DNA of 64,000 nucleotides from Betaproteobacteria bacterium (GTDB taxonomy: Bacteria; Pseudomonadota; Gammaproteobacteria; Burkholderiales; Usitatibacteraceae): positions 459 through 64,458 of the forward strand of contig JAGRPO010000088.1 in NCBI GenBank assembly GCA_019449455.1, read 5' to 3'. The notes under the pieces are model-generated. The model was given only the letters and a program-made list of their open reading frames with translations. It ran no database searches and was not told where the DNA came from. Position 1 is the stretch's first letter. Each line of letters opens with the position of its first letter. This document shows positions 18,301 through 34,883 of this stretch, piece after piece. The translations under genes and the position numbers were made by a program.

Positions 18301-18608
18301 CAGCCGGTGCTCCAGGCGCGCGGGCGCTTCATGCCCGCGATCTTGCAGGCCTGGCCGGGGTAGCCGTAGGGGAAGAGCTCGAAGAGGCGGTTGCGGGCGC
18401 CGGGGCCGAGGCGTTCCATGAGGTGCCAGATGACGAACCTCGCATCCGCGGTGATCTGGTGCTCCTCCCAGTAGCCGCGCATGAACCGGATCGCGTCCCA
18501 GTGGTCCGGTCCCAGTTCGATGCCTTCCTTGCGCGCAAGCGCCACCGCGACGTTCTCGGACCATTGGCTCGGGTCGACGAGATAGCCGTCGGCATCCAGA
18601 ACAGGCAT
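18300..18608 (-). CDS. DsrC/TusE family protein (atypical C-terminal arm)
   Basis: ATG at 18608 follows GGAAGG. MPVLDADGYLVDPSQWSE...HWDAIRFMRGYW...LFELFPYGYPGQACKIAGMKRPRAWSTG. Confidence 0.8.
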   Translation of the reverse strand: MPVLDADGYLVDPSQWSENVAVALARKEGIELGPDHWDAIRFMRGYWEEHQITADARFVIWHLMERLGPGARNRLFELFPYGYPGQACKIAGMKRPRAWSTG

Positions 18609-18723
18609 GTTGGATACACCTTCCATGGGCCAAATGGTAACGGATCGGGTTACTTCGTCAACCCCCCCCATCCGGGTTACCCCGGGAGGATTGGGCGAGG
18701 CCGGGCCCGGGGGGCGGGATGGG

Positions 18724-19857: not shown

Positions 19858-20507
19858 GTCGCCTTCGCGCGCGGCGGCGAGGGGGTGGGCTTGATCCCGA
19901 GCTTGTCGGCCGCCCGCACGAGGTCGGCCACCGATCGCACCGACATCTTCTCCATGATGCGGCCGCGGTGCACCTTGACCGTCTTTTCGGTGGTGCCGAT
20001 CTCGGCGGCGATCACCTTGTTGCGCTTGCCGGCGATCACGTGGGTGAGCACCTCGCGTTCGCGCGGCGTGAGCTCGCCGTATCGAAGCGCGATCTCGCGC
20101 TTGGTGACCTTGTCGCTGGAGGCGGCGCGCGCGCGCGCGATGGCGCGCGTGAGAGCGGCGAGCAGTGTGGCGGCCTCGACGGGCTTGAGCAGGAAGTCGA
20201 CGGCGCCGCGCTTCATCGAGGTGACCGCTCCCGGCACGTCGCCGTGCCCGGTGAGGAAGACCACGGCGATCTCCGGCCGCAGGGCCTGCAGGCGGGCATG
20301 CAGCTCGAGGCCGCTCTTGCCCGGGAGCCCGATGTCGAGCAGCGCGCACGACGGCCCCGTGATGCCCGGCAGGAACTCGAGGAACTCCTCCGCGGTGGCG
20401 AAGGCCTGCGGGTCGGCGCCCTCGGCGCGCAGCAGGCGCGTGATCGACGTGCGCACCGACGGGTCGTCGTCGATGATGAACAGGCTCACGCCCTCGGCGG
20501 CGATCAT
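19854..20507 (-). CDS. FixJ/LuxR-type response regulator
   Basis: ORF 19854..20507. REC domain (LFIIDDDPS...ALLDIGLPG...K) plus LuxR HTH (LTPREREVLTHVIAGKRNKVIAAEIGTTEKTVKVHR). ATGA overlap with the kinase gene. Confidence 0.92.
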   Translation of the reverse strand: MIAAEGVSLFIIDDDPSVRTSITRLLRAEGADPQAFATAEEFLEFLPGITGPSCALLDIGLPGKSGLELHARLQALRPEIAVVFLTGHGDVPGAVTSMKRGAVDFLLKPVEAATLLAALTRAIARARAASSDKVTKREIALRYGELTPREREVLTHVIAGKRNKVIAAEIGTTEKTVKVHRGRIMEKMSVRSVADLVRAADKLGIKPTPSPPRAKAT

Positions 20508-21673
20508 TTGGGGTCTTCTCCCGGCAGGTGGATGGTGAAGGTGAGGCCGCGGCCGGCATTGCGCTCCAGCTCGAGCCGCCCGCCGTGAGCTTCCACCAGC
20601 GAGCGCGTGACGAGGAGCCCCAGGCCGGTGCCGCGTGCCTTGGTCGTGTGGAATGTCCGCGTCATGCGGGCGAGGACTTCGTTGTCGGCGCCCGGGCCGC
20701 TGTCGGTCACGCGCACGCGCACGCCCCCGTCCTCGGGCTCGACCGCGACCACGAGCGCGCGCTCGACGCCGGCGGGGTTGCCTTCCATCGCCTCGATGGC
20801 GTTCACCACGAGGTTCAGGAGCGCCTGGTAGAGCTGGACGGGATCGGCCATCACGCGGCCCAGCGTCTTGCGCGCCAGGAGCTGCGTCCTGACGCCGGCG
20901 TGACGCAGGTGCGTGCGCGTGAAGTCGAGGACCTCGGAGGCGATGCGGGCCGCGTCCACGGCCTCCGCGGCCGCCGGCTGCTTGCGCACGAGGCGGTGCG
21001 CGCGAAGGATGATCTCGCCGGCGCGCCGCGCGTCGCCCGCGATCGCCTCCAGGGCTTCGCGGACCTCGGCCGCGTTGCCCGAGTCGAGAAAACGCAGCGC
21101 GGCCTCGGCGTTGGCGGTGATGGCCGCGAGCGGCTGGTTCACCTCGTGGGCCAGGGAGGCGCCGAGGGCCGCCACCGTGCGCACCCGCGAGGCATGGGCG
21201 ACCGTGTCCTGGAGGTCGTGCTCGCGCTCGCGGGTGAGGTGCAGCTCGGTCACGTCGGACTGCGTGCCCACGTGGTGCGTGACCTTTCCCGTCGCGTCCC
21301 GGATGGGCGCGATGCGCAGGAAGTTCCAGAACGGCGTGCCGTCCTTGCGGTAGTTGAGGATCTCGCCCTGGAAGACCTTTCCCTGCTGCAGCGCGATGGC
21401 CATCTGCTTGACGGTCTCGGGGTCGGTCCCGGGGCCTTGCACCATGCGGCAGTTGGTGCCCAGGATCTCGTCGGCGGTGTAGCCCACCAGCCGCTCGAAC
21501 GACGGGCTCACGTAGACGATGGGCGCGTCCGGCGTCGAGGCGTCCGAGATGACGATGCCGTCGTCGGCCACGTCGAGCGCGGCGGCCTTGAGCCAGGTGG
21601 CGACCTCGGGAGGGAGCGCCTTTGCCGCGACCCGGGAGGCGCGCTTCGGCACGGTCGGCTTGCGGGCGGCCAT
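20504..21673 (-). CDS. LOV-domain sensor histidine kinase (FixL-like transmitter)
   Basis: ORF 20504..21673. LOV core DGIVISDASTPDAPIVYVSPSFERLVGYTADEILGTNCRMVQGPGTDPETV...GEILNYRKDGTPFWNFLRIAPIRD...GTQSDVTE. H-box LAHEVNQPLAAI. C-terminal HATPase_c (GTGLGL). Confidence 0.88.
   Translation of the reverse strand: MAARKPTVPKRASRVAAKALPPEVATWLKAAALDVADDGIVISDASTPDAPIVYVSPSFERLVGYTADEILGTNCRMVQGPGTDPETVKQMAIALQQGKVFQGEILNYRKDGTPFWNFLRIAPIRDATGKVTHHVGTQSDVTELHLTREREHDLQDTVAHASRVRTVAALGASLAHEVNQPLAAITANAEAALRFLDSGNAAEVREALEAIAGDARRAGEIILRAHRLVRKQPAAAEAVDAARIASEVLDFTRTHLRHAGVRTQLLARKTLGRVMADPVQLYQALLNLVVNAIEAMEGNPAGVERALVVAVEPEDGGVRVRVTDSGPGADNEVLARMTRTFHTTKARGTGLGLLVTRSLVEAHGGRLELERNAGRGLTFTIHLPGEDPK
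21254..21574 (-). other. LOV (light-oxygen-voltage) PAS subdomain of the kinase; adduct-forming Cys codon at 21449-21451
   Basis: GTNCRMVQG corresponds to the canonical GxNCRFLQG. The reverse complement of 21441-21460 reads GGC ACC AAC TGC CGC ATG GT. Confidence 0.8.
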
Positions 21674-21684
21674 CGGTCGCGCGC

Positions 21685-22398
21685 CTAGCCGGTGTACGTG
21701 CGCAGGCGCTCGATGTCGGGCACCGACACCGAACGGCCTTCCATCACGATGAGGCCGGCGTCGGCCAGCTCGTGGAGGATGCGCGAGAAGTACTCCGGCG
21801 TGAGGTTCAGCCGCGAGGCCACGATCATCTTGTTGGCGGGAAGCGTCACGCTCGCCGAGCGGGCGGAGCCGTCGGAAAGCGTGTCGTCGCGCAGCAGGTA
21901 GCCGATCACGCGCTCCAGGCCCGAGCGCAGCGAATACGCCTCCACGTCACGGATGAGCTGGTGAAGCTTCCTCGACATGCCGGCCAGCAGCCGGCGGGCG
22001 AAGCGCGGGTCGCGCTCGATCTCGTCGAGGACCATGCTCTTCGAGACGTGCAGCAGCAGCGAATCCTTCAGCGTCTGCGCGGAGATGACGTAGGGCATGT
22101 CCATGAAGAGGATCGCCTCCCCGAACGAGATGCCGGGGCCCATGATCTCGATCACCTTCTCCGAGCCCTGCGGCGAGGTGACGAAGAGCTTCACCTGCCC
22201 GTAGAGGACGACGTGGAATCCCTCGCAGCGGTCGCCGCGCGAGAAGAGAGTCTCGCCCTTCATCGCGTAGATGCGGCGCGTGCCGCCCGCTATGCGCGCG
22301 ATCTCCTCGGGCGTCAGGTCGCTGAACAGCGGGAGGTTCACCAGGAACTGCTCGACCGGGATGTCCGGCCCGCGCGCGCGCGGCTCTCCGGTTTGCAT
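21685..22398 (-). CDS. Crp/Fnr family regulator, Dnr/NnrR-like (no Fe-S Cys motif)
   Basis: ORF 21685..22398. LPLFSDLTPEEIARIAGG...GISFGEAILF... is the effector barrel. The HTH is IVASRLNLTPEYFSRILHEL. It lies 11 nt upstream of the LOV kinase start and 51 nt downstream of the respiratory operon. Confidence 0.88.
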   Translation of the reverse strand: MQTGEPRARGPDIPVEQFLVNLPLFSDLTPEEIARIAGGTRRIYAMKGETLFSRGDRCEGFHVVLYGQVKLFVTSPQGSEKVIEIMGPGISFGEAILFMDMPYVISAQTLKDSLLLHVSKSMVLDEIERDPRFARRLLAGMSRKLHQLIRDVEAYSLRSGLERVIGYLLRDDTLSDGSARSASVTLPANKMIVASRLNLTPEYFSRILHELADAGLIVMEGRSVSVPDIERLRTYTG

Positions 22399-22449: not shown

Positions 22450-23265
22450 TCACGACCCGACGGAAACGCGCCCGGGAAGGCCCGGGTCGGGCCGGGGGGC
22501 GGCCCGCGAGGAGAGCGCGGCGGCGATGGCCGCGCACAGCGCCGCCGAGGAAAGCAGGTTGTGCAGCCAGCGCGCCAGCGGCCAGCCGGAAGCGGCGACG
22601 GCGGCGAGGACCTGCGCCGCGATGAGCGCGACCGCCAGGCGGGCGGCGAGGCGCGCGCCCGGCGGCGGGGAGGCGCTGAACGCCAGCAGAGCCCATCCGG
22701 CGAGGCTCGCCCACGCGAGCGCGCGGTGGACGAGGGCGAGCGACGAGGGATCGGACGGCGGCGCGGTGGCGAGCACGCCGCCCGTCACCGTGGCGAGGGC
22801 GACGAGCGCGCTTGCCGCGACGAAGGGCGTCGCGAGGCGGCCGCGGGGGGCAAGCGCGGCGACCGCGAGGCCGGCCGACAAGGCGAGGAGGGTGAGGCCT
22901 CCGAGCAGGTTGGCGAGCATCACCGCGGGAGGCGCGGCGCCCGCCGAGCGCCGGCCGATGACCGCGAGCACCGCCACCAGCACGAGGACGGCGGCGGCCG
23001 CCACGCGGCGGCCGGGGCGCGCGGGGGCCTTCCACGCGACGGCGGCGATGAGGAGCGCGAGGACGGTCACGCCCATCGCCGCGACGCGATGGGCGAGCCG
23101 CACGGCATCGGAGAGCCCGAAACCGGTGCAGCCGCCGGCGGGGCAGGGCGCGGCCGCCAGCCGCAGCCAGGCGCTGGAGGCGACGACGACGAAGACGAGG
23201 GCGGCGCACGCCGCGGCCGACGCGACGAGCGCGCGGTCGTCCCGCGCGAGGCCGGGCAGGCTCAC
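22450..23265 (-). CDS. Polytopic membrane protein, weakly COX15/CtaA-like
   Basis: GTG at 23265 overlaps the upstream stop (GTGA). CPAGGC in the first loop, and AHRVAAMG / VHRALAWA helix motifs that recall the HR motifs of haem A synthase halves. Confidence 0.5.
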   Translation of the reverse strand: MSLPGLARDDRALVASAAACAALVFVVVASSAWLRLAAAPCPAGGCTGFGLSDAVRLAHRVAAMGVTVLALLIAAVAWKAPARPGRRVAAAAVLVLVAVLAVIGRRSAGAAPPAVMLANLLGGLTLLALSAGLAVAALAPRGRLATPFVAASALVALATVTGGVLATAPPSDPSSLALVHRALAWASLAGWALLAFSASPPPGARLAARLAVALIAAQVLAAVAASGWPLARWLHNLLSSAALCAAIAAALSSRAAPRPDPGLPGRVSVGS

Positions 23266-24683
23266 CGGACCCCGGCCGGGGCCCGCTGCCGGAGCGCGCC
23301 GATCACGACGATCACGAACGCGAGGCCGCCCAGGATGGCGACGAGGCCGCCCAGGCCCATCAGCGCCATGCCGGCCACCTCCTGGGACGTGCGCAGGACC
23401 TGCGCGGCGCCCGCCACCTTGCGCTCCACGCCGTAGCCGCCGGACCAGACCAGGCCCACGATGTGCGCGAGCTGCCCGCCGCCGTAGAGCCACGGCTGCC
23501 ACGCCGCCAGGCGGGACCGCGGCGCCGCGAAGCCCAGCTGCGGCAGCAGGTGGTAGGCGAGGCCCATGAAGGCGAGCGTCACGCCGACGATGCAGCCGTG
23601 GTAGTGCGCGGGGATCTTCACGTTGGGGCCGCTGATCGCGAACCCGATGAGGCCGCCGGCCGCGAAGAGCCCGATCGAGGCGGCGAGCGCGCCGAATATC
23701 GGGCGGCTGCGCCCGTCGAGCGCCGGCAGCCCGCGCATGGCCCAGAGCAACGCGAGCAGCACGGGCGGGATGGCGAGCCCGCCGCCGAATCGCATGAGCC
23801 ACGTCTGCAGCTTGTGGTGCTCGACCGACGCCACGGGGTGCGCGATGTAGATGGCAGGCGTCACGAGCACCGAGGCGAACGCGATGGTGAAGACGAGCAG
23901 CGTCACGCGCGGCGAGAGCGCCAGGCGCAGGCCCAGCGCCGAGGCGAGCCACAGCCAGCCCCCGAGCATGAGGAGCGTCCACGTGAACTGCAGCACGTGA
24001 CCGCCGCCCCAGAACAGCAGCTCGTAGTAGGCCTTGCGCTCGAGGTGCGGGGAGACGTCGAGGTACGACCAGCCGAACGCGGCCAGCGCGACGGCGGTCG
24101 CGGCCGCCGATCCCACGATGCCCCAGCGCAGCGCGGCCTCCCCGTCGAGGACGGATCCGGAGGACCGTGCCGCCCAGAACGTGCGTGCCACGGCGGCTGC
24201 CACGCCCGCGCCGATCGCGCCGAGCCCGCCGAGGAATACGGCGTTGTCGATGACCGGGATGTAATTGGCGAGCACCGGGACCGCGTGCCCCGCGAGAGGG
24301 GCGACGCACAGGGCGAGTGTCCCGGCCGCGCACAACGCGAGCGATGTCCAGCCCAGGGCGATGGCGCGCGAATCGCAGGCGAGGCTCCAGAGGACGCCGG
24401 CGAAGGCGAGGAACCACACCAGCACCGAGAGGTCGACGTGCGCGACGAGCGCCACCTGGAAGAAGTCCGCGACGGGAAACACCTCCTTCAGTCCGGGCGT
24501 GCGCGCGAGCACCAGCAGCAGCGAGAAGATGCCGGAGCCGACGAGGGCGGCGATGCCGAGCACCAGCCAGCCCGTGGCGAGCCGCGCGGAGGCGTCGCGC
24601 GCCACCGTGATCCCGTAGGCCGTGCCCCGGCCGGAACCCGCGGAGGATGCAGTGGGGAGATGAAGGGAGGGCAGGCTAGCCAT
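23262..24683 (-). CDS. Orphan haem-copper oxidase superfamily catalytic-subunit homologue (473 aa)
   Basis: ORF 23262..24683, 12-TM pattern. All six canonical His are present: LVAHVDL (helix II), LFWGGGHVLQF (helix VI), SVEHHKLQ (helix VII), IPAHYHGCIVG (helix X). There is no Tyr at His+4. The start overlaps the upstream gene by 8 nt. Confidence 0.8.
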   Translation of the reverse strand: MASLPSLHLPTASSAGSGRGTAYGITVARDASARLATGWLVLGIAALVGSGIFSLLLVLARTPGLKEVFPVADFFQVALVAHVDLSVLVWFLAFAGVLWSLACDSRAIALGWTSLALCAAGTLALCVAPLAGHAVPVLANYIPVIDNAVFLGGLGAIGAGVAAAVARTFWAARSSGSVLDGEAALRWGIVGSAAATAVALAAFGWSYLDVSPHLERKAYYELLFWGGGHVLQFTWTLLMLGGWLWLASALGLRLALSPRVTLLVFTIAFASVLVTPAIYIAHPVASVEHHKLQTWLMRFGGGLAIPPVLLALLWAMRGLPALDGRSRPIFGALAASIGLFAAGGLIGFAISGPNVKIPAHYHGCIVGVTLAFMGLAYHLLPQLGFAAPRSRLAAWQPWLYGGGQLAHIVGLVWSGGYGVERKVAGAAQVLRTSQEVAGMALMGLGGLVAILGGLAFVIVVIGALRQRAPAGVR

Positions 24684-26265
24684 GGTGCTTCTCCTGGCGT
24701 TTGGGTGGCAGGGTGTGGCGGGCCGCGCGCGGCCCCAGGCGGGAAAGCTCGGTGCGGAACGTGTCGAGTTCGACGCGCAGCGCGTCGAGATCGGTGAGCC
24801 CGGCGTGCGCGTACCGGACGCGCTCCCGCGGCACGCTCGAGCGCAGGGAGGGCTTGCGCCCGCCGTCCAGGCGGGCCGCGACGAGCGCGTCGCCCACGCG
24901 GAACTCGCAGTCGCCCTCCCGGCATCCCGCGACGAGCACGCCGTCGGCGCCCGCGCGAAGGGCGTATTCGACGAAGGAGGGAGGCACCATCGCGGCGCAC
25001 AGGAACTCGATCGCGGCCGTGGAGTGGCCCTCGAGGGACGCGACGCCGGCGCCCCAGCGGCAGCCGAACACCACGATGCGGGGGCCGCCCTCGAGCGCCG
25101 CCGCGCGCGCCTCGAGCCGCGCGCGCAGCCCGCCGATGGTCGCCGAGGGCATGTCGATGCCCGTGGCGAGCGCCTCGTCGCGGCGGAAAGGCGTCGAGGA
25201 CGGGCAGGCGCCGGTGCAGATGCCGCATCCCGCGCAGAGGTTCGCGTCGACCTGCGCCTGCCGGAGGTGCGGCCGGGCGTCGGTGCGCGGCACCATCACC
25301 ACGGCGTCGTAGGGGCAATCGGCGAAGCAGCGCGCGCAGCCGTTGCAGTTGGCGAGGTTCACGCGGGCCACCGGCGCGCGCGGCACGCGGGTGGCGTAGG
25401 GCAGCGCGGCGAGGCCGGCGAAGAACGCGGCGGTCGCCGCCCACAGGCCCTCGGGGCCGAGCCAGGCCATGGCCGGGTGCGGAAAGAGGTAGAACCAGTC
25501 GAGCGGGATCGTCGCGGGCAGCAGGCCGAGGTCGGCGGCGGGCATGAGCGAGACGGGCTTCGCGAGCGCGAGCGCCGCGAGCATCGCGGCCGTTCCCCAG
25601 GCAAGGGCGCGCGGCGGTTGGGTGCGCGCCGGGCTCACCCGCTGCACGTGGACCCACATCGCCGCGAGCATCGCTAGCGGCAGGCCGATGTGCAGGAAGA
25701 TGAGGAGCGAGAAGAAGCGGTCGTTCACCTGGTCGCCGGCGATGACGTTGCGGGTGAGCGCCCCGTCGAAGAACGGCAGCGCGTCGAGCCATTCGGTGGT
25801 CGCGGTGAGGCTCCATTGCGCGAGCTGGTCCCAGGGGAGCCAGTAGCCGCCGATGCCGGCGGCGAACATCAGGGCGAGCGCGAAGATGCCCGTGAGCCAG
25901 GCGAATCGCCTGAACGCGGCGTAGTGGCGGCGCGAGAGCTCGCGCACGAGATGCAGCGCCGTGACCGCCACGAGGGCGTCGGCGCTGTAGCGGTGCAGGG
26001 CGCGCGCGAACGCTCCCAGCGGCCAGGCGTTCCGGTCCATCGCGGCGAGGCTCTCGCGCGCGCCGGTGGCGCTGGTGTCGAAGCCGACGTAGATCCAGAT
26101 GCCGGAGGCGCAGCAGATCCAGAAGGAGAGGAAGCCGAGGGCGCCCAGGTGCCGCCACGGGTTCAGGCGCTGGCCGAAGGCGCGGTCGAAGAGCGCGTCC
26201 AGCCGCTCGACGATCGGGGCGGCGGGACCCGGCCCGGGAAGCGCGAAGGCGGCGGAAGCGTTCAT
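24676..26265 (-). CDS. Fusion protein: dihaem cytochrome b (bc-type N-domain) + 2x[4Fe-4S] ferredoxin + MvhD/FlpD-like domain
   Basis: ATG at 26265 within ORF 24676..26574. Cyt b His pairs: ALHRY...ALHLV and FLHIGLPL...WVHVQ, plus GYWLPWDQLA. Fe-S motifs CNGCARCFADCP and CAGCGICTGACP. MvhD-like motifs VVFGCRWG...LVAGCREGDCEF. Confidence 0.8.
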   Translation of the reverse strand: MNASAAFALPGPGPAAPIVERLDALFDRAFGQRLNPWRHLGALGFLSFWICCASGIWIYVGFDTSATGARESLAAMDRNAWPLGAFARALHRYSADALVAVTALHLVRELSRRHYAAFRRFAWLTGIFALALMFAAGIGGYWLPWDQLAQWSLTATTEWLDALPFFDGALTRNVIAGDQVNDRFFSLLIFLHIGLPLAMLAAMWVHVQRVSPARTQPPRALAWGTAAMLAALALAKPVSLMPAADLGLLPATIPLDWFYLFPHPAMAWLGPEGLWAATAAFFAGLAALPYATRVPRAPVARVNLANCNGCARCFADCPYDAVVMVPRTDARPHLRQAQVDANLCAGCGICTGACPSSTPFRRDEALATGIDMPSATIGGLRARLEARAAALEGGPRIVVFGCRWGAGVASLEGHSTAAIEFLCAAMVPPSFVEYALRAGADGVLVAGCREGDCEFRVGDALVAARLDGGRKPSLRSSVPRERVRYAHAGLTDLDALRVELDTFRTELSRLGPRAARHTLPPKRQEKHHG

Positions 26266-26294
26266 GGTCGTCCCGGCTCGTTCCTCGGCCGCGG

Positions 26295-26795
26295 CTAGCG
26301 GATGAGGATCCCGCCCTTGCCGGGCTCGAAGTCGATCACCAGCACGCGGCCGGGCTCGAGGCGCACCTGCTCCTCGCGCACGCGGTCGAACGTGCCCGCG
26401 GCATCGTCGGCGAGCGCCACGCGCAGCCGGTGCGTGCCGGCCGCCACGGGGATGCGCCGGTAGGCGACGGAGGCGCCGTCGCGCGAAAAGCCGGCGGGCT
26501 TCGCGACGATGTCGGCGACGGGGGCGCCGTCGAGCTCCACCTTCACGAGCACCGGGGCGCGCTCGCGGGGGCAATCCTCCGCGGCGCGCATGTTGGGGGC
26601 GAGCTTCGCGAGTTCCTCGGGCGTGCGCATGCGGCAGGCGACCTTGCGCTGTCCCGCGTGGTTGAGGGACAGGCGGATCAGCGCGTACCCCGGCGGCAGC
26701 GGCCTGAAGGCCGGCGCGGTCGAGAAGTAGCCGAGGGCGGCCGCGAAGGCGCCGTAGAGGAGGGCCTGGAGAACGTAACGGAAGGCGCGGTTCAC
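26295..26795 (-). CDS. Hypothetical single-TM protein of the operon
   Basis: GTG at 26795 overlaps the upstream stop (GTGA). N-terminal TM YVLQALLYGAFAAALGYF, then a soluble domain of about 130 aa with no motif I recognise. Confidence 0.55.
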   Translation of the reverse strand: MNRAFRYVLQALLYGAFAAALGYFSTAPAFRPLPPGYALIRLSLNHAGQRKVACRMRTPEELAKLAPNMRAAEDCPRERAPVLVKVELDGAPVADIVAKPAGFSRDGASVAYRRIPVAAGTHRLRVALADDAAGTFDRVREEQVRLEPGRVLVIDFEPGKGGILIR

Positions 26796-28729
26796 GGGCG
26801 GCCTCCCAGGCGCACGACGTCGGCGTCCCCGGCGTGGATGCGCGGCGCGAGCTTGAACGCGTCCGAGAAGCAGTCGTCGGGCGCGAGCCCCTGCTTGGCG
26901 AACGCCGGCTGCGCGGCCTCGACCATCTTCACCGAGCCGCACGCGTAGATGCGATGCCCCGCGAGGTCGGGATAGTCGGAGAGGATCGCCTCGTGGACGA
27001 GCCCGGTGCGGCCCTCCCACGCTTCCCCGGGCGCGGGGTCGGAGAGCACGGGCACGAAGCGGAAGTTCGGATGCTCCCTGGCCCAGCGCTCGGGGAGCTC
27101 GCGCAGGTACATGTCGGCGAGCGTGCGCGTGCCCCAGTAGAGCACCATGGGCCGCGTGATCCCGGCGTGGAACGCGTGCTCCACCATGCTCTTCACGGGC
27201 GCGAAGCCGGTCGCCCCCGCGACGAAGATCACGGGCTTGGCGCCGTCCTCGCGCAGGAAGAAGGAGCCCACGGGCCCCTCGAAGCGCACGCGGTCGCCGA
27301 CCTTCATGGCGGTGAAGACGTGCGTGGTGAAGCGGCCGCCCTGGATGGCCCGGATGTGCAGCTCGATGGGGCCTTGCTCGTGCGGGGCGGTGGCGAAGGA
27401 GAAGGCGCGCTTCTGGCCGTCGTCGAGGAGGATGTTGATGTACTGGCCGGCGTAGAACGGTGCCTTCCCGCCGCCCTCCACCTCGAGGCGCACGCGCATC
27501 ACGTCCTTCGCCAGGAGGTCGAGCGAGACGACGCGCGCCTCGTGCACGGCGACCGGGCGGGCCGCCTGCGCCGTGGGCTCGTACTCGATTTCCACGTCGG
27601 AGAGTGGCTTGGCCACGCAGGCGAGGACGCGCCCGGCCTCGCGGTCGGCGGCCGTGAGGGCGCTTTGCTGGTAGGCGCCCAGCGCCACCTCGCCGTGCAG
27701 CACCGTGCACTTGCACACGCCGCAGCCGCCGTTGCGGCAGTCGAAGGCCATGGGCAGGCCGTCCCTCAGGCACGCGTCGAGGAGCGACTCGTCCTCCTTC
27801 ACCGGGATGATGCGGTTGTCCGGATGGGCCAGGACATGGAAGGCGCGCAATTCGCGGCGCCCGAACTTCGGCGGCAGCCACGGCGCCATGACGGCGAGCA
27901 GCGTGAGTCCTCCCACGAGCAGCCACAGGGTGTCGGGCGACCAGCGGTAGAGCAGCGCGTAGGTCGGCATGTAGAACCAGTCGAACTCGATCGCGGCGGC
28001 CATCGTCGCGAGGTCGGCGGGCCCCTGGCTCAGGGCCGGCTTCACGACCGAGAGCACGACCATGGCCGCGCCCAGCGCGGCCATCAGCGGGTTCGGGGGC
28101 AGCGTCTTCGCCTGCGGCACGCGGTGGGTGTGGATCCACAGGAGCGCCAGCACGCCGAGCGGCAGCCCGATGTGGAGGAAGGAGAGCAGCGAGAAGAACC
28201 GGTCGTTCACGCTGTCCGCGACCAGGAAGTTGCGCATGAGCAGCCCGTTGAAGACCGGGAGCGCGTCGAACCACTCGGCGGTGGCCGTGACCGTGAACGC
28301 CGCGAGCTGGTCCCACGGCAGCATGTAGCCGTTGATGCCGGAGGCGTAGACGAGCCACAGCACGAGCACGCCGCTCACCCACGAGAACCAGCGGAACCCG
28401 CGGTGGCGGTCGAAGGCGAAGTGGCGCAGGAGGTGCAGCGCCATCGTGAGCACCATGCCGTCGGAGGCGTAGCGGTGCAGGCTTCGCATGATGCCCCCGG
28501 CCCACTTCTGCCCGTGCGTGAGCCGCTCGACCGACAGGTACGCCTCGGTGACGCTCGTGTCGAAGAAGGCGTAGAGGTAGAGCCCGCTCGCGACCACGAC
28601 CCAGAACAGCCAGTAGCTGATCGCCCCCAGGTGGTAGAGCGGGTTCAGGTGCTCGCCGAAGATCGCGTTGGCGGCCCGCTCGGCGAGAAGGAACAGGCGT
28701 TGGAGCAGTCGCTGCAGGAGCTTGAGCAT
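26792..28729 (-). CDS. Fusion protein: dihaem cytochrome b + plant-type [2Fe-2S] ferredoxin + FAD/NAD(P)H ferredoxin-reductase module
   Basis: ORF 26792..28729. Cyt b: SLHRY...ALHLL, GYMLPWDQLA, FLHIGLPL...WIHTH. [2Fe-2S]: CRNGGCGVCKC...LACVA. FNR module: RAFSFA (RxYS-type FAD site), VAGATGFAP (NAD(P)H site), YACGSVKM. Confidence 0.85.
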   Translation of the reverse strand: MLKLLQRLLQRLFLLAERAANAIFGEHLNPLYHLGAISYWLFWVVVASGLYLYAFFDTSVTEAYLSVERLTHGQKWAGGIMRSLHRYASDGMVLTMALHLLRHFAFDRHRGFRWFSWVSGVLVLWLVYASGINGYMLPWDQLAAFTVTATAEWFDALPVFNGLLMRNFLVADSVNDRFFSLLSFLHIGLPLGVLALLWIHTHRVPQAKTLPPNPLMAALGAAMVVLSVVKPALSQGPADLATMAAAIEFDWFYMPTYALLYRWSPDTLWLLVGGLTLLAVMAPWLPPKFGRRELRAFHVLAHPDNRIIPVKEDESLLDACLRDGLPMAFDCRNGGCGVCKCTVLHGEVALGAYQQSALTAADREAGRVLACVAKPLSDVEIEYEPTAQAARPVAVHEARVVSLDLLAKDVMRVRLEVEGGGKAPFYAGQYINILLDDGQKRAFSFATAPHEQGPIELHIRAIQGGRFTTHVFTAMKVGDRVRFEGPVGSFFLREDGAKPVIFVAGATGFAPVKSMVEHAFHAGITRPMVLYWGTRTLADMYLRELPERWAREHPNFRFVPVLSDPAPGEAWEGRTGLVHEAILSDYPDLAGHRIYACGSVKMVEAAQPAFAKQGLAPDDCFSDAFKLAPRIHAGDADVVRLGGRP

Positions 28730-28738
28730 GGGGGAGGT

Positions 28739-29575
28739 TCAGCCGGCGGCGCGCAGCCGGCGGCGGTGGCGTTGCCATTCGCGCAGCAGGTAGACGAGCG
28801 TGGTGAGGAGGATCGACAGGCCCGCGAGGATCTCGATCACCACGCCGTAGTCCAGGCGGTACCGGCCGGTGCGCGGATCGTAGACGGTGCACAGCAGGCG
28901 AACGCGGTCGACGATGTTGGCGAGGCTCGCCGCGGGCAGGGGCGCGTCGGTGAGGAGCGCCTTCAGCGGGCCCACGAGCATCGACATCTCGAAGTTCTCG
29001 CCGTAGACCTGCGCGGCCACGCGGCCGTTCGCGTCGAGGAGCGTCACCTGCGTGAGGTGGTCGAAGCCGCCGGCGGAGGCGGCGTAGCTGAAGCCCAGCT
29101 CGCGCGTGATCGCCTCCACCACCCCGGCCTCGGGGCTGAGGAAGTGCCAGTCGCGGCGGTCGATGCCCTGCTGGCGGGCGAAGGCGCGCATCGCCTCGGG
29201 CGTGTCGTAGGGGTAGTTGAAGCCGATGGTGGCCAGGGAGTAGCGCCCCGGGCCCAGCGCGCGGTCGGCCTCGGCGACGGCCTTGGCCAGGAAACGCGTG
29301 GTGGTGGGGCAGACCTGCGAGCAGCCGGTGTAGACGAAGCTCACCAGCACCGGCCGGCCGCGAAGCTGCGACAGGCGGAAGGGACTCCCGTCACCGGCCC
29401 GGAAGGCGTGGTCGCCCACCGGGGTGCCGATGGCGCGCTGGCTGCGGTCGAGGGCCGCGTCCGGCTCCAGGGTGGCGCCCTCGGGCGCTGCTCGCGCCTG
29501 CACAGCGCCGAGGACTGCCCCGAAGCAGAGCGCGGCCGCCGTCAGCAGCCAGCGCGGTCGGCATCCGTTGCCCAT
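28739..29575 (-). CDS. SCO1/SenC copper chaperone with an extra C-terminal TM segment
   Basis: ATG at 29575 within ORF 28739..30337. Signal/anchor, then thioredoxin-fold motif FVYTGCSQVCPTT (CxxxC) and a conserved His in GFDHLTQV. Confidence 0.88.
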   Translation of the reverse strand: MGNGCRPRWLLTAAALCFGAVLGAVQARAAPEGATLEPDAALDRSQRAIGTPVGDHAFRAGDGSPFRLSQLRGRPVLVSFVYTGCSQVCPTTTRFLAKAVAEADRALGPGRYSLATIGFNYPYDTPEAMRAFARQQGIDRRDWHFLSPEAGVVEAITRELGFSYAASAGGFDHLTQVTLLDANGRVAAQVYGENFEMSMLVGPLKALLTDAPLPAASLANIVDRVRLLCTVYDPRTGRYRLDYGVVIEILAGLSILLTTLVYLLREWQRHRRRLRAAG

Positions 29576-29580
29576 GCGGG

Positions 29581-30480
29581 CTAGCCTCGCCAGGCCGCGT
29601 CCGCGATCACGCCGATGAGAAGTAGCGAGAGCTGGGCGAGCGAGGCGTGGAAACTGCGCATCGCGGTGGCGCGCGAAGGATCCCTGGCAAGGCGGGCCGC
29701 GGCCCGCAGGAAGAGGAAGCCCCCCGCGATCGCGCCTGCGGCATAGAGCGGACCCAGGCCGAAGGCGAGCGGAAGGAACGAGGAGAAGACGAGGACGACG
29801 GTGCCGGCGAGGACCGCGCGTGCCGCGCGGGCGTCGCCGACGACGACCGGCAGCATCGGCACGCCGGCGGCCCGGTAGTCGTCGTGGTAGGCGATGGCGA
29901 GGCTCCAGAAATGCGGCGGGGTCCACAGGAACAGGACCCACGCGAGCGACGCGGCGACGGGGCCGACCTCGCCCGGCGCGACGCTCGTGGCGCCGGCGAG
30001 CACCGCGAAGCTGCCCGCGAGCCCGCCGATCACGATGTTCATCCAGGTGCGCCGCTTGAGGACGACGGTGTAGACGACGCCGTAGAAGAAGGCGCCCAGG
30101 AACACGAACAGGGCGGCCACCGGGTTCACCGCGACGGCCGTCGCGCAGACGGCGAGCGCCAGCATCAGGCCGATCACGCCCAGCCAGAACGGCCCGTGCG
30201 TGAGCCGGCCGGTGACGAACGCCCGGTGGCGCGTGCGCCCCATGCGCGCGTCGAGGTCGCGCTCGACGTACTGGTTGAACGCGCCGGCCGAAGCGGACGC
30301 GGCGATGACGCAGGCCACCAGCAGGGCGATCTGCCACGCGCCCGCCGCCTGCCGGCCGGGGACCGCGAGGGCTCCCGCGAGCGCGGTGAGCCCGATCGCG
30401 AACCCGATGCGCAGCTTGAACAGGTCGAAGAACAACCTCACCTGGTCGCGCATCGGGCCTGCATGTCCATCTTCGCTCAT
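29581..30480 (-). CDS. ctaB: Protohaem IX farnesyltransferase (haem O synthase)
   Basis: ATG at 30480 within ORF 29581..31944. NQYVERDLDARMGRTRHR (UbiA-type motif) and LFLWTPPHFWSLA. Confidence 0.9.
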   Translation of the reverse strand: MSEDGHAGPMRDQVRLFFDLFKLRIGFAIGLTALAGALAVPGRQAAGAWQIALLVACVIAASASAGAFNQYVERDLDARMGRTRHRAFVTGRLTHGPFWLGVIGLMLALAVCATAVAVNPVAALFVFLGAFFYGVVYTVVLKRRTWMNIVIGGLAGSFAVLAGATSVAPGEVGPVAASLAWVLFLWTPPHFWSLAIAYHDDYRAAGVPMLPVVVGDARAARAVLAGTVVLVFSSFLPLAFGLGPLYAAGAIAGGFLFLRAAARLARDPSRATAMRSFHASLAQLSLLLIGVIADAAWRG

Positions 30481-30506
30481 GGCGGTCTCCCGGTCGGTCG
30501 GTTGGG

Positions 30507-32228
30507 CTACTTGAGCGGCCAGACGGTCGACAGGTACTTCCAGTTCACGAAGTAGTAGAGGATGAACGACGTGAGGAAGATCATCGCCAGCACGAAGGTG
30601 CCCGGCGCCACGAACCCGCCGATGCCGATGGAGCCGTGGCCCGACGGGGCGGCGGCGACCGGTACCGGCGCGGGCGCCATGCCCTGGCGGACCGGGACGT
30701 GCTTGAAGTCCGGCGTCTGGATCTTCTTGCCGAAGAACACGGAGCCCACGGTGATGGCGAGGTACATCCCGCCGCCGATGACCGCGGCGATGCCCGAGAC
30801 CGCCATGATGCCCATCATGAGATAGGCGGTGCCGGGGAACTCGTGCGGCAGGATCGCGCCCGAGAACGCCATGTCCCAGTGCCGGCGCGGCACGCCCAGC
30901 GTCCCGGCGCCCATCATGAACACCGAGAAGGAGCACATGCCGAGGCCGTAGACATAGGGCTGCCACTTCGCCATGCCCGGGAACATGACCTCGCGCCGGA
31001 AGAGCGTCGGGATGAGGAAGTAGGTGAGCGCCATGAACGCGAGCGTGGTGCCCACGACGACCGTCGCGTGGAAGTGGCCGGGCACGTAGATCGTGTTGTG
31101 GATGATGAGGTTCAGCTGCTCCGTGCCCATCATCACGCCCGAGATGCCGCCCAGGAAGCCGAAGCCCACGAGCGAGATGAACATCCCCGAGAAGCTCGGG
31201 TTGCCCCAGGGGGCCTTGCGCAGCCACTCGAAGAAGCCCTTGTTGAAGCCCTTCTCGCGCTGCGCCACCTCGATCGCGCCCGGCACCGTGAGGCCGTGCA
31301 CCATGGAGGCGAGCACCGCGAGGTACATGGCGTAGCTGGTGTTGAAGATCTTCCAGTTGGAGGTGAGGCCGGGGTCGGCGAGCAGGTGGTGGGCGCTCGC
31401 GAGCTGCAGGAAGAGGATGTAGAGGACGAAGGCGGTCCGGCTCACCTTCTCGCTCATCGGCTTCGCGCCGAAGACGATGGCGGCGATCGCGTACCACACC
31501 GACACGTGGGCCGCGACGTTGATCTGCTGCGAGGAGTGCCCGAACGCCCACCAGACGGTGCGGTACATGAGGGAGTCGATGTGCGACACCAGGCCCACGG
31601 ACCAGAGGAAGGTGGGGATCAGGATGATCGCGCCCGCGGCGATGGTGAAGACGGCGATGATCGCGGCGGTGACGGCCCCGAAGGTCACCAGCGGGATCGA
31701 GCCGTTGTAGGTCTTCTCCGCCTTGCCGACGACCAGCGTGCCGAAGAACACGAAGCAGGCGACGAGCGCGCCCACGGCGAAGAGGATGAGCCCGAGGTAG
31801 AAGAGCGGGTGCGCCCCCATCGGCACGTAGGAGGTGAACATCACGCTGGAGTCGCCCTTGAACACGGCGAAGTTGTTCGTGAGCGCGCCGACGATCATGA
31901 GCCAGAAGGCGACCCAGGCCACCTTCGGCGTCGCGAGCCGGCACTTGAGGAGCGTGGAGGCGGCGAAGTAGAGCACCGCGATCTCGAAGAAGATGATCCA
32001 GAAGACGAGCATGTCCAGCCCGTGCGCGGTGAGCGCGAGGTAGAACCAGTCGGGCGGCAGCAGCTTCACGGCGGGCCAGCGCGTGAGCGTGACCAGGAGC
32101 GCGAGGACTCCGCCCACGAGGAGGGAGACCACCCCCGCGACGGCGTTCCAGCGGATGAGCTTCTCGGCCGGCTCGTGGAAGACGAGGCCGGAGGACGGGC
32201 AGGTGCGGAAATTGCGATTGACGGCCAT
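30507..32228 (-). CDS. Haem-copper oxidase subunit I, B-family-like, lacking the cross-link Tyr
   Basis: ORF 30507..32228. TAHGLDMLVFW (helix II His), WWAFGHSSQQINV (CuB His; His+4 is Gln, not Tyr), ASAHHLLADPG (HH), VPGHFHATVVVG (HxH). Confidence 0.9.
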   Translation of the reverse strand: MAVNRNFRTCPSSGLVFHEPAEKLIRWNAVAGVVSLLVGGVLALLVTLTRWPAVKLLPPDWFYLALTAHGLDMLVFWIIFFEIAVLYFAASTLLKCRLATPKVAWVAFWLMIVGALTNNFAVFKGDSSVMFTSYVPMGAHPLFYLGLILFAVGALVACFVFFGTLVVGKAEKTYNGSIPLVTFGAVTAAIIAVFTIAAGAIILIPTFLWSVGLVSHIDSLMYRTVWWAFGHSSQQINVAAHVSVWYAIAAIVFGAKPMSEKVSRTAFVLYILFLQLASAHHLLADPGLTSNWKIFNTSYAMYLAVLASMVHGLTVPGAIEVAQREKGFNKGFFEWLRKAPWGNPSFSGMFISLVGFGFLGGISGVMMGTEQLNLIIHNTIYVPGHFHATVVVGTTLAFMALTYFLIPTLFRREVMFPGMAKWQPYVYGLGMCSFSVFMMGAGTLGVPRRHWDMAFSGAILPHEFPGTAYLMMGIMAVSGIAAVIGGGMYLAITVGSVFFGKKIQTPDFKHVPVRQGMAPAPVPVAAAPSGHGSIGIGGFVAPGTFVLAMIFLTSFILYYFVNWKYLSTVWPLK

Positions 32229-32238
32229 GGCGGTCTCC

Positions 32239-32793
32239 CTACCCTTTCTTCGGCTTGACGACGTAGAGCTTGCTCGCCATCGTGTGGTGGTTGATGCCGC
32301 AGTACTCGTTGCAGATGATCGAGTACGTGCCTTCCTTCGTCGGCGTGAGCGTCACGACGTGCTCGTAGCCGGGGTGGATCTGGATGTTGATGTTCTCGGG
32401 CTGCAGCGAGAAGCCGTGCAGCCAGTCGGTCGACATGATGTGCAGGCGGTAGGTCTGCCCTTCCTCGAGCTCGAGGACGGGCCAGAACTGCCAGAGGCGG
32501 GCGACGAGATAGACGTCGCTGCCGGGCACCGGATGCACCACGGGGATGTTCTGCTCGGTGACGGTGCGCACCGTGTGCTTGTCGACCATCGCCTGCGCCT
32601 TGGCGAGGTAGGCCTCGGGCGTGGTGCGGTAGGCCTCGTTGGAGAGGTTCTGCTTACCGTAGACGTGCCAGTACGGCATCATGAAGAACATCACCATGCA
32701 CCAGACGAAGGCGATGACGATCCAGGTGCCTTCGACGCGGTCCAGGGGCTGCTTCCACCAGAGTCGTTCGGCAGGGGGTTGTATGGCGCTCAT
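32239..32793 (-). CDS. Haem-copper oxidase subunit II with an intact CuA site
   Basis: ORF 32239..32793. It has one TM and then a cupredoxin domain with DWLHGFSL and CNEYCGINHHTM (CxExCGxxHxxM). Confidence 0.85.
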   Translation of the reverse strand: MSAIQPPAERLWWKQPLDRVEGTWIVIAFVWCMVMFFMMPYWHVYGKQNLSNEAYRTTPEAYLAKAQAMVDKHTVRTVTEQNIPVVHPVPGSDVYLVARLWQFWPVLELEEGQTYRLHIMSTDWLHGFSLQPENINIQIHPGYEHVVTLTPTKEGTYSIICNEYCGINHHTMASKLYVVKPKKG

Positions 32794-32817
32794 GTCGGCC
32801 TCGCGGGGTAGGAGTTC

Positions 32818-33000
32818 TTATTTGGCGATCGGAATGCCGACGATCTCCATCACGCCCCAGACGATGTACAGGACGGTGGGCATCGCGACGCCGAGGAACA
32901 GCAGGAGGAACGGGTTGTCGATCAGCTGCTGCATCATCGGGACCGGCTCGTCGTGCATGTCGTCGTCCGCCGGGGCGGGCGAGGCGGGTACCTGACTCAT
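32818..33000 (-). CDS. Small single-TM peptide, first gene of the operon (possible subunit IIa-like accessory)
   Basis: ATG at 33000 follows AGGAGGAG. MSQVPASPAPADDDMHDEPVPMMQQLIDNPFLLLFLGVAMPTVLYIVWGVMEIVGIPIAK. Confidence 0.5.
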   Translation of the reverse strand: MSQVPASPAPADDDMHDEPVPMMQQLIDNPFLLLFLGVAMPTVLYIVWGVMEIVGIPIAK

Positions 33001-33054
33001 GGGGTCTCCTCCTGGAATGGGGGGCGGGCCGCGGGGGCGACACGTCACGCAGGT

Positions 33055-33096
33055 ATGCTAGGCAGCCGGCCCGGGGAAAAAATTGAACCCGTTCAA
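33055..33096 (-). promoter_or_regulatory. Candidate class II Crp/Fnr(Dnr)-dependent promoter of the respiratory operon
   Basis: Perfect palindrome TTGAAC-CC-GTTCAA (33083-33096; TTGA-N6-TCAA core). On the minus strand the -10-like TAGCAT (33060 to 33055) begins 29.5 nt from the box centre, i.e. the classical -41.5 geometry. Confidence 0.5.
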
Positions 33097-34248: not shown

Positions 34249-34818
34249 TCAGGGCTTCAGCGGGCAGTTCTTCACGCGCGGGCAGGCTTCGTCGTGGCGG
34301 TGCGCGATCGAGATGGCGATGGCCTTCGACCGCGAGGGATCGACGGTGCCCATCAGCTCGGCGAGCTCGACGCTTTCGCGCTCGAGGTGGCGGCGCATGC
34401 GCGCGAGGAAGTCGGCCGAGGTGCCGCCGGGAAAGGCCACCAGGACGCCGCCCGCGAGGGCGAGCAGCGGGATGCGAAGCGCATGCCACAGCTCGGCCAG
34501 CTCGCGGTGCTCCACGAGGAGCGAGGAGACGAGCTCGAAGGACTGGCCGCGGTGGGCCGGCGAGTCGGAGGCGGCGAGGACCGCCGGGAAGATGTCCGTT
34601 TCCTCGTCGACCACGTGCACGTTGATCGCCTCGTCGATCTCCGCGACCAGCGCGCCGGCGCGACCGGACAGGCCGGCGGGCGGCGGGGTCGGGACGGCGG
34701 CGAGCTCGGACGCGAGCGCCTCCAGGCGATCGAGCAGCCCGGCAATGCAGCGGTGGCACTGCCCGAGCGAATCGCGCGGGGACGTAACGCCGGTCTGTTC
34801 GGACTGCGGATCTGGCAT
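34249..34818 (-). CDS. Hemerythrin-like (HHE cation-binding) domain protein
   Basis: ATG at 34818 follows GGAGGG. Spaced His/Glu motifs: CHRCIAGLLDRLE, NVHVVDEETDIFP, LVEHRELAELWH, RRHLERE. The assignment is tentative. Confidence 0.5.
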   Translation of the reverse strand: MPDPQSEQTGVTSPRDSLGQCHRCIAGLLDRLEALASELAAVPTPPPAGLSGRAGALVAEIDEAINVHVVDEETDIFPAVLAASDSPAHRGQSFELVSSLLVEHRELAELWHALRIPLLALAGGVLVAFPGGTSADFLARMRRHLERESVELAELMGTVDPSRSKAIAISIAHRHDEACPRVKNCPLKP

Positions 34819-34841
34819 CGGCCCTCCGGAAGCGAGGACCA

Positions 34842-34883
34842 AGACTACCGGGACGGGCGCCGCGGCAATTTAAAGAAGATCAA
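34842..34883 (-). promoter_or_regulatory. Weak Crp/Fnr-like half-site promoter candidate for the hemerythrin-like gene
   Basis: TTAAAGAAGATCAA (34870-34883; only the right half ATCAA is canonical). The minus-strand -10-like TAGTCT (34847 to 34842) begins 29.5 nt from the centre. It shares the TCAAGAAAA flank with the 33083 box. Confidence 0.25.

Follow-up and report, generated by a model that had tools for sequence, protein, structure and literature searches.

What does a haem-copper enzyme operon do with cytochrome b fusion proteins of its own, and which of two haem-copper oxidase (HCO)-type subunits do they serve? The question is raised by ten co-oriented open reading frames (ORFs) that run from 33000 to 22450 on the minus strand of a 64,000-nucleotide stretch of Betaproteobacteria bacterium DNA (GenBank assembly GCA_019449455.1, contig JAGRPO010000088.1, positions 459 to 64,458; hereafter the window), and which we number g1 to g10 from upstream to downstream (Table 1). 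We predict that the locus is an eNOR-type respiratory nitric oxide (NO) reductase operon that carries, besides cofactor-assembly genes, four conserved membrane redox genes (g6-g9). Two of these encode cytochrome b fused to iron-sulfur (Fe-S) and flavin modules (g6 and g8), and we infer that they would act as di-haem wires carrying cytoplasmic electrons outward to eNOR and/or to a second HCO (HCO2, g9). We give this explanation as a whole a probability of about 0.45, somewhat short of even odds. The first-pass annotation, made by a model from the sequence alone, had presented an undescribed system; its account of the genes is confirmed and its interpretation is supported in part, but g1-g5 turn out to belong to the eNOR family, and the whole operon is already listed for Ferrigenium straubiae (10.64898/2026.01.22.701106). 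The enzyme core is known and the accessory module is in print, without biochemical characterisation; what we add is how widely the module is conserved and that it is built of separable parts.

The first HCO (HCO1, g3) keeps all six canonical His ligands (H69, H231, H280/H281 and H385/H387) together with R448/R449, and its best solved relatives are B-family oxidases (7deg, 2.8e-52; Thermus thermophilus ba3, ~1e-46). At the position of the oxidase cross-link Tyr (His+4) it has Gln235, within the motif GH231-S-S-Q-Q235, and GHSSQQ recurs in homologues at four related loci (L083, L084, L087, L089). A Gln here is the published mark of eNOR (PMC8756737 Table A4). The neighbouring g2 product contains the full CuA ligand set (H126, C161, C165, H169 and M172; motif H...CxExCxxxHxxM). 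Because of Gln235, the adjacent CuA subunit and the B-family nearest relatives, we assign g3 as eNOR subunit I. The small g1 peptide, encoded directly upstream of subunit II in 38 of 40 fully informative related loci, probably serves as a small subunit of eNOR. Homology and diagnostic residues, then, identify g1-g3 as encoding an eNOR enzyme, with NO reductase activity predicted. Our search for HCO1 homologues returned only proteins >82% identical; distant eNORs were reached through plasmid records and a scan that started from g8.

The eNOR of Rhodothermus marinus was shown biochemically in 2024 to be an NO reductase that does not reduce O2; it has haem A-type cofactors and a CuA-type subunit II, was purified as two subunits and was active with artificial donors (Murali et al. 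2024, PMC11214002). Our locus shares with it the B-family-like subunit I with Gln and the CuA-type subunit II, and with the eNOR family the genes for CtaA and haem O synthase, within the operon or next to it, and the denitrification and low-oxygen context. Whereas the R. marinus enzyme is a two-subunit complex assayed with artificial donors, the present locus adds g6-g9. The NO and low-oxygen context that the first-pass annotation saw in the locus is supported.

Both fusions begin with a cytochrome b domain of six transmembrane (TM) helices and two haems. In g6 the haem ligands are H85/H99/H186/H200, followed by a PEWY-like DWFY (250-253), the Fe-S cysteines 331/336/339/371, and the flavin and nucleotide motifs RAFS (441) and GATGFAP (505); haem His, DWFY, Cys, flavin and nucleotide motifs are all conserved in 63 homologues. 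The g8 counterparts are H91/H105/H192/H206, DWFY at 256 and three sets of Fe-S cysteines (307/310/313/317, 344/347/350/354 and 402/423/448/453), with haem His, DWFY and Fe-S Cys invariant even in distant homologues. The two cytochrome b domains are 45% identical, and their closest solved relative is cytochrome b6 (E 7e-22). The xDWFY motif sits after the fifth helix and before the sixth, and we read it as the likely counterpart of the subunit IV PEWY loop. Because b6 homology gives six TM helices, the soluble modules should lie on the same side as the N terminus, which in bc1 and b6f is the cytoplasm. We therefore predict that the FAD and Fe-S modules of both fusions face the cytoplasm. That placement had been suggested before, and as a prediction it is borne out by the b6-homology topology and by hydropathy; the accompanying idea of a transmembrane haem wire is reasonable, given the conservation of the four haem His, the PEWY-like DWFY and all Fe-S Cys.

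The resemblance to known membrane cytochromes is partial in each case. With cytochrome b6 plus subunit IV of b6f, and with bc1 cytochrome b, the fusions share four haem His with bc-type spacing, a GYxLPWxQ-like helix C and a PEWY-like ef loop, but they have xDWFY in place of PEWY and no helices G and H, and where the inner-side quinone site would be they carry the fused Fe-S/flavin domains. We found neither a Rieske protein nor a cytochrome c1/f in domain searches of the ten operon genes and the flanking genes examined, again unlike b6f and bc1. The label NOX-like applies to g6 in its electron-flow logic, as in NADPH oxidase, ferric reductase and MsrQ (cytoplasmic NAD(P)H and FAD to two stacked b haems to an outer-face acceptor), but not in its haem domain, which matches Cytochrome_B and Cytochrom_B_N_2 with no Ferric_reduct match and is accompanied by an extra [2Fe-2S] cluster; it is an analogy, not membership. 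In the di-haem succinate:menaquinone and fumarate reductases of Bacillus subtilis and Wolinella succinogenes, a pair of transmembrane b haems links cytoplasmic flavin and Fe-S centres to a site close to the outer face. Their anchor is non-homologous to ours and their substrates are different, and the partner here is a haem-copper enzyme.

Between the two fusions lies g7, in which C54 and C75 are invariant and H46, M69 and H122 nearly so. A single-sequence structure model was weak (predicted local distance difference test, pLDDT, 61) and showed the TM helix followed by ~8 strands, whose fold matches were generic beta-sandwiches, none below E 1e-3. The protein showed no similarity to CuA subunit II (hhalign probability 0.15%) and does not contain the Rieske CxH...CxxH motif. 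With no CuA similarity, no Pfam or PDB relatives and a weak model, we set aside the possibility of g7 being a CuA- or Rieske-type subunit in disguise.

Which HCO the fusions accompany was examined in three samples of related loci. Sample A comprised the 80 genome loci most similar to HCO2, from Burkholderiales and relatives, Usitatibacteraceae, Casimicrobiaceae, Steroidobacteraceae and Lysobacterales. Among the 40 with full flanks, eNOR I/II, including the g2 homologue, the SCO1 gene (g5) and g7 were present in 40/40, g8 in 39/40 and g6 in 37/40, in two gene orders (g5-g6-g7-g8-g9 and g5-g8-g7-g9-g6). In sample B, eight contexts of distant HCO2 members, an HCO subunit I lay within 10 kb of HCO2 in 8/8; three of these subunits were checked as eNOR-type (GHSSQQ), and that of L085 belongs to an A-type oxidase with GHPEVY. 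Here g8 was found in 5/8 and g6 in 1/8, and three loci (L082, L084, L085) had HCO2 without any cytochrome b fusion. Sample C, 80 metagenome loci collected from the g8 side with an alphaproteobacterial plasmid copy as seed, had eNOR I upstream of g8 (37/37 informative loci) and g7 directly after it (60/60 informative loci), with HCO2 in 4/39 and g6 in 0/80; a CtaA homologue was detected near g8 in only 3/80. Across all three samples g6 was seen only in loci with HCO2, and HCO2 was never seen away from a canonical HCO in the sampled loci.

By co-occurrence, g8-g7 is a widespread accessory pair dedicated to eNOR, and HCO2 and g6 are further add-ons in the beta/gammaproteobacterial lineage. These patterns support a layered arrangement, in which eNOR can stand alone, HCO2 is a further addition always near an HCO, and g6 was seen only with HCO2. 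They bear on the first-pass annotation, which had tied both fusions to the orphan HCO2 as its only plausible electron donors. The tie loosens on three counts: g8-g7 follow eNOR, with HCO2 in 4/39 loci; L082, L084 and L085 hold HCO2 without a fusion; and the first HCO, with a CuA subunit of its own, is the likelier acceptor. The association of fusions with HCO2 survives for g6, found in these samples only with HCO2, and not for g8, which is mostly found without it.

The one report to name the accessory genes in the literature searched describes the Ferrigenium straubiae KS operon (Becker et al., bioRxiv 10.64898/2026.01.22.701106, May 2026). It shares eNOR II and I, haem O synthase, Sco1, a cyt b-FeS-FAD-NAD protein, a hypothetical protein, a COX1-like "eNOR scaffold protein" and a cyt b-FeS protein, and differs in gene order and in an inserted PerM gene. 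The preprint calls the fusions "rather unusual" and, with no biochemistry on them, proposes a quinol:NAD+ oxidoreductase in a supercomplex with eNOR. In our samples, by comparison, proteobacterial eNOR clusters as a rule carry the fusions, with g8-g7 and g6-HCO2 behaving as separable sub-modules.

In the reading we favour, each fusion would contribute a six-helix b6-like cytochrome b, with two stacked haems spanning the membrane and the Fe-S/flavin module in the cytoplasm. Electrons could enter g6 from NAD(P)H and pass through FAD and [2Fe-2S] to the inner and then the outer b haem, and could enter g8 from a low-potential donor through two [4Fe-4S] clusters and the MvhD cluster to the b haems. 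At the outer face they would leave to the CuA of eNOR, perhaps via g7, and/or to the haems of HCO2, with the acceptors possibly divided so that g8-g7 serves eNOR and g6 serves HCO2; an 8-nt overlap of g8 and g9 and a natural cytochrome b-HCO2 fusion count in favour of this reading. The outcome would be a route of NO reduction needing neither bc1 nor cytochrome c. By our own reasoning outward flow is favoured because the redox potential and the membrane potential both favour it, and a role in electron supply is favoured because g8-g7 follows eNOR irrespective of HCO2 and CtaA lies near g8 in so few loci. We favour keeping the wire logic of the first-pass annotation and changing its main acceptor to eNOR.

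Several points weigh against this reading. To our knowledge there is no biochemistry on g6-g9. We found no obvious cytoplasmic donor for g8, the positive-inside signal that would place g7 on one side of the membrane is weak, and the PEWY-like motif hints at a possible quinone site, which would allow other routes. The co-occurrence samples consist of the best 80 matches per scan and are of limited phylogenetic breadth. An eNOR on a Thermus megaplasmid adjoins nirS and nirK and has none of the accessory genes; since this eNOR is without them and the two-subunit R. marinus enzyme is active, eNOR can do without the accessory proteins. In F. straubiae under denitrifying conditions at 28 °C, transcripts per million were ~13,000 for eNOR II and ~2,300 for eNOR I, compared with ~550 for cyt b-FNR, ~315 for the HCO2 homologue and ~70 for cyt b-FeS (10.64898/2026.01.22.701106). 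Accessory transcripts and proteins were several- to ~100-fold below eNOR I/II in that study, and because their abundance is so far below that of eNOR I/II, a 1:1 complex is argued against.

The nature of HCO2 matters for the alternatives. Its closest sequence relative is the eNOR subunit of the same operon (hhalign against the eNOR I family: probability 99.8%, 26% identity). An AlphaFold2 model (pLDDT 85, predicted template modelling score 0.88) had ba3 subunit I as its best fold match (TM-score 0.71), with qNOR far lower; a profile search of solved structures gave nothing at E <= 0.01, the ba3 affinity coming from fold comparison only. A relationship to NOD, cNOR or qNOR was rejected, qNOR falling far below the B-family in the fold search and the eNOR subunit being closest in sequence. 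By alignment, H82 and H362 are the low-spin haem ligands and H360 the high-spin ligand, R421-K422 align with the haem-propionate-binding Arg pair, and H229 is the first metal-site His. The canonical HH pair is replaced by E288-H289, giving His/Glu/His in place of three His, and the His+4 position is F233, neither the oxidase cross-link Tyr nor the fourth Glu ligand of cNOR/qNOR, with Q232 conserved beside it; with Q235 in HCO1, the first-pass statement that neither HCO has the cross-link Tyr holds.

In a family alignment of 123 sequences (the window protein and 122 diverse representatives), H82, H360 and H362 are each present in >=120/123, and there is virtually no variation at H229, Q232 and R421-K422. 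Glu occupies position 288 in 59/123 and His occupies position 289 in 34/123, leaving H229 as the only one of the three metal-site ligands that is invariant family-wide; members beside eNOR have E-H, D-H, H-H or R-H at the pair. The E-H motif showed no correlation with whether a cytochrome b partner is present. HCO2 almost certainly binds two haems. It is not a standard catalytic subunit, the role implied for it earlier, one metal-site His being Glu and a single ligand of three being invariant across the family. We infer instead a haem-binding paralogue docked to a cytochrome b domain, serving either as a second reaction site or as an eNOR assembly scaffold.

HCO2 homologues are numerous, with at least 584 species genomes from one scan and 789 clusters reaching E <= 1e-30, and no HCO2-type protein is among the HCO families named in PMC11214002. 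The nearest parallel is gNOR, where Asp replaces one metal-site His (PMC11214002), as HCO2 likewise has a carboxylate (Glu288) and is also without the Tyr. In contrast to HCO2, gNOR has a cupredoxin subunit II and occurs in taxa of sulfidic habitats; HCO2 has no subunit II, is always beside another HCO and is 26% identical to eNOR I. No dedicated electron-entry subunit (CuA, cytochrome c or fused domain) and no adjoining subunit II was found beside HCO2, and a search of plasmid records returned no plasmid-borne relatives.

Variants of HCO2 were observed in several lineages. Four 50%-identity clusters (P0251, P0302, P0323, P0363) have an extra TM helix and a tetratricopeptide repeat-like domain and are without the helix VII E-H pair. 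P0365 is a natural fusion of HCO2 to haem O synthase, whose amino-acid composition suggests a low-GC organism; it points to a link of HCO2 with haem O/A handling. The natural cytochrome b-HCO2 fusion is known in P0086/P0241, and in L081 (8239-10527; GCA_044229235.1) a 762-aa protein has a third cytochrome b domain fused directly to HCO2, with separate g6 and g8 also present, g6 seemingly split in two ORFs, and nirS adjoining. Where HCO2 is divergently oriented from eNOR, in L084 (5203-8601) and L088 (6674-10392), it is preceded by a hemerythrin gene, a ~170-aa secreted protein unrelated to g7, and a second SCO1-like gene; this extra copy may mean that copper or thiol-redox handling is required by HCO2 or a partner. 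In L083 (10604-13038), a Sulfuricaulis metagenome-assembled genome, two NIR_SIR-type (sirohaem nitrite/sulfite reductase-like) genes stand right after HCO2 and before NosR and nirS.

A bolder form of the proposal would make the Rieske-less b6-type cytochrome b with cytoplasmic Fe-S/flavin domains a dedicated partner of a haem-copper NO reductase, either as a direct NAD(P)H:NO oxidoreductase supercomplex or as a quinol-bifurcating device linking the reduction of NO to that of NAD(P)+/ferredoxin, with HCO2 as a new catalytic HCO family having a haem and a His/Glu/His non-haem metal site. We hold this to be doubtful.

Among the rival explanations, a maturation module fares best, unlikely as we consider it. 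HCO2 would here be a non-catalytic holder of haem during its synthesis or insertion, and the fusions would give electrons for CtaA-type haem A synthesis; by analogy, HCO2 might serve eNOR as NifEN serves nitrogenase and permit eNOR assembly at very low oxygen. Yeast Cox15 depends on ferredoxin and ferredoxin reductase, which speaks for such an electron supply. The proximity of HCO2 to an HCO subunit I, within 10 kb in every sampled locus and usually with haem O synthase, CtaA or SCO1, extends to the A-type oxidase cluster of L085; g9 overlaps the CtaA-like g10 by 4 nt, and two CtaA paralogues recur in these clusters. Also on its side are the family-wide disappearance of the three-His metal site alongside retained haem ligands, and the haem A-type cofactors of eNOR together with the O2 requirement of CtaA (PMC11214002). 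Two observations in particular favour this rival: the low abundance in Ferrigenium, where expression is sub-stoichiometric and the preprint itself names the protein "scaffold" (10.64898/2026.01.22.701106), and the HCO2-haem O synthase fusion in one lineage (P0365). The g8-g7 pair nevertheless follows eNOR in most loci without HCO2, with a CtaA homologue detected near g8 in only 3/80, and the eNOR-linked HCO2 clade retains the second metal-site His with an acidic or His neighbour (E/D/H-H), which a haem holder would not need. We also know of no precedent for an HCO paralogue as a chaperone.

That both fusions feed cytoplasmic electrons to HCO2, and that HCO2 is a catalytic reductase in its own right, with NO or some other small oxidant as substrate, was the model of the first-pass annotation, and we judge it decidedly unlikely. 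Both haem sites, the propionate-binding Arg-Lys pair, H229 and Q232 are kept, the His/Glu/His arrangement recalls NOR-type metal sites, and the natural cytochrome b-HCO2 fusion, the restriction of g6 to HCO2-containing loci and the want of a subunit II for HCO2 are all as this model would have it. It is opposed by the 35/39 loci in which g8 and g7 stand with eNOR and without HCO2, by the three HCO2 loci free of fusions (L082, L084, L085), by a metal site with just one of three ligands invariant family-wide, and by the constant nearness of a canonical HCO, which suggests dependence rather than independent catalysis.

A third rival is reverse or bifurcating electron flow. Analogous proposals for anammox Rieske/cytochrome b complexes count in its favour; against it, Burkholderiales and their relatives are mostly heterotrophs without need for such flow. 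The least probable of the rivals, in which quinol is oxidised at the PEWY-like site and one electron goes to the high-potential NO reductase while the other passes inward via the b haems and Fe-S/FAD to NAD(P)+ or ferredoxin, has in its favour the DWFY motif and b6-type architecture of both fusions, its proposal in 10.64898/2026.01.22.701106 and several lithoautotrophic hosts in need of reverse electron flow (Ferrigenium, Sulfuricaulis), but the operon has no Rieske or other proven high-potential acceptor, inward flow would by our own reasoning oppose the membrane potential and a ~400 mV redox span, and most sampled hosts are Burkholderiales and relatives (Rhodoferax, Ramlibacter, Rhizobacter).

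The layout of the locus is that of a putative single operon as first described, with matching coordinates. Spacing from g1 to g10 (start to stop) is 24, 10, 26, 5, 9, -4, 29, -8 and -4 nt, an exact match to the gaps and overlaps given before, and a site search of the operon found no terminator-like sites between the ten genes. In the window, which is ~70% GC, 7/10 genes pass a coding screen with a threshold of third-position GC (GC3) >= 0.82, their GC3 being 0.88-0.99; the 60-aa peptide is below the size cut-off of the screen and the remaining non-passing genes are unscored at their true coordinates, the GC3 values for g4, g5, g7 and g10 being those of far longer ORFs extended upstream, and these did not pass. 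For g7, g8 and g10 the start codons were inferred. Domain searches bore out the ten-gene content described earlier, with g10's likeness to CtaA coming from hhalign; g1 (60 aa), g7 (166 aa) and g10 (271 aa) had no family match in Pfam/NCBIfam-type searches.

Table 1. Predicted features of the eNOR-type locus, in window coordinates
Feature	Coordinates	Strand	Description	Match or basis
FNR/Dnr-type box	33083..33096	.	TTGAACCCGTTCAA; putative	divergent promoter region between g1 and ctaA
g1	32818..33000	-	60-aa single-TM peptide	conserved DNPFxLLF...WG motif
g2	32239..32793	-	eNOR subunit II, CuA cupredoxin, one TM helix	PF00116 (COX2), E 5e-7
g3	30507..32228	-	eNOR subunit I (HCO1)	PF00115 (COX1), E 1.5e-66
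g4	29581..30480	-	haem O synthase (CtaB/CyoE)	TIGR01473, 245 bits vs NCBIfam cut-off 210
g5	28739..29575	-	SCO1/SenC copper chaperone	PF02630, E 1.1e-10
g6	26792..28729	-	cytochrome b + plant-type [2Fe-2S] ferredoxin + FAD/NAD(P)H reductase	Cytochrome_B, Fer2, FAD_binding_6, NAD_binding_1
g7	26295..26795	-	166-aa protein, one N-terminal TM helix + predicted beta-sandwich domain; obligate partner of g8	no Pfam or PDB relative
g8	24676..26265	-	cytochrome b + 2x[4Fe-4S] + MvhD/FlpD-like [2Fe-2S] domain	Pfam domains
g9	23262..24683	-	HCO2, 12-TM HCO subunit I paralogue, 473 aa	PF00115 (COX1), E 3.9e-15
g10	22450..23265	-	divergent, shortened CtaA-like membrane protein	hhalign vs CtaA family
ctaA	33151..34221	+	canonical haem A synthase, divergent	PF02628, E 1.7e-109
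Crp/Fnr-family regulator	21685..22398	-	downstream of operon	cNMP_binding + HTH_Crp_2
hemerythrin-domain protein	34249..34842	-		PF01814, E 7.5e-10

The maturation genes that surround the core are consistent with its predicted cofactors. SCO1/SenC (g5) has CxxxC at residues 85-89. In a local hhalign comparison g10 matched the CtaA family (probability 98.2%, E 3.6e-14) with no direct Pfam match; the His residues aligning with those of CtaA TM2, TM6 and TM8 are kept and that of TM4 is Asn (3/4 His), and the large outer loop of CtaA is missing; by its alignment g10 is a divergent CtaA paralogue. Judged by homology, g4, g5, g10 and the divergent ctaA supply eNOR with its haem A-type cofactor and copper.

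All four elements said earlier to frame the locus were found: the divergent ctaA, the hemerythrin-domain gene, the Crp/Fnr regulator and the FNR-type box. The promoter box escaped a strict TTGATNNNNATCAA search; its relaxed form, TTGA-N6-TCAA, was spotted by eye and then counted across loci, occurring <=300 nt upstream of g1 in 19/51 related loci, against a chance expectation that we estimate at <0.001 per locus. A Crp/Fnr homologue flanks the cluster in 18/40 loci, hemerythrin genes recur in related clusters (L083, L084, L088, L089), and nirS, NosR, NnrS and haem d1 genes adjoin related clusters. The nirS, NosR, NnrS and haem d1 neighbours and the box fit control by NO and low oxygen, and the operon is probably under an FNR/Dnr-type regulator. 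In F. straubiae, transcripts of the operon genes were 4-7-fold higher under denitrifying than under microoxic conditions (10.64898/2026.01.22.701106 SI), and all four proteins were detected under denitrifying growth (10.64898/2026.01.22.701106).

These genes matter because eNOR is among the commonest NO reductases in environmental data, and so a source of the greenhouse gas N2O. A cytochrome b-Fe-S fusion with its small partner protein is a near-constant part of proteobacterial eNOR clusters, and a second, larger add-on of an HCO paralogue and a cytochrome b-ferredoxin-FNR fusion is found in hundreds of species. If cytoplasmic reductant does reach eNOR through these proteins, a new branch would be needed in models of denitrification, for electron flow as for energy conservation, with reach into wastewater, groundwater and iron-oxidising communities. 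The system is testable in cultured hosts, including Usitatibacter palustris, Noviherbaspirillum sp. ST 5-3, Quisquiliibacterium transsilvanicum DSM 29781 and the Ferrigenium enrichment culture KS.

Some further features were noted along the way. The g5 product has TM helices at both termini, the second C-terminal (~241-265) and followed by an Arg-rich tail, which is unusual for SCO1. On a Thermus thermophilus plasmid (L090, 8983-10668; NZ_LR027520.1) the eNOR-type subunit I has GHGAQQ, and Lys replaces the second His of HxH; its gene stands beside nirS and a multicopper oxidase gene, with no accessory genes. Such His/Lys haem ligation has been described (PMC11214002). After the Crp/Fnr gene in the window come a PAS-domain histidine kinase and a LuxR-type response regulator (19854-21673, minus strand), which may form an oxygen- or redox-sensing two-component system for the cluster; the PAS kinase is kept after the operon only in the closest relatives (L001-L003, L062). 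A 920-aa ORF elsewhere in the window (41365-44127, minus strand), positionally unrelated to the operon, encodes another cytochrome b fusion, in which the cytochrome b domain is N-terminal and multihaem cytochrome c7/c3-like motifs are present. Genes for a DsrC-like protein (18300-18671) and a HupE/UreJ-type membrane protein (15561-16916), also on the minus strand, follow the operon at a distance of a few kb.

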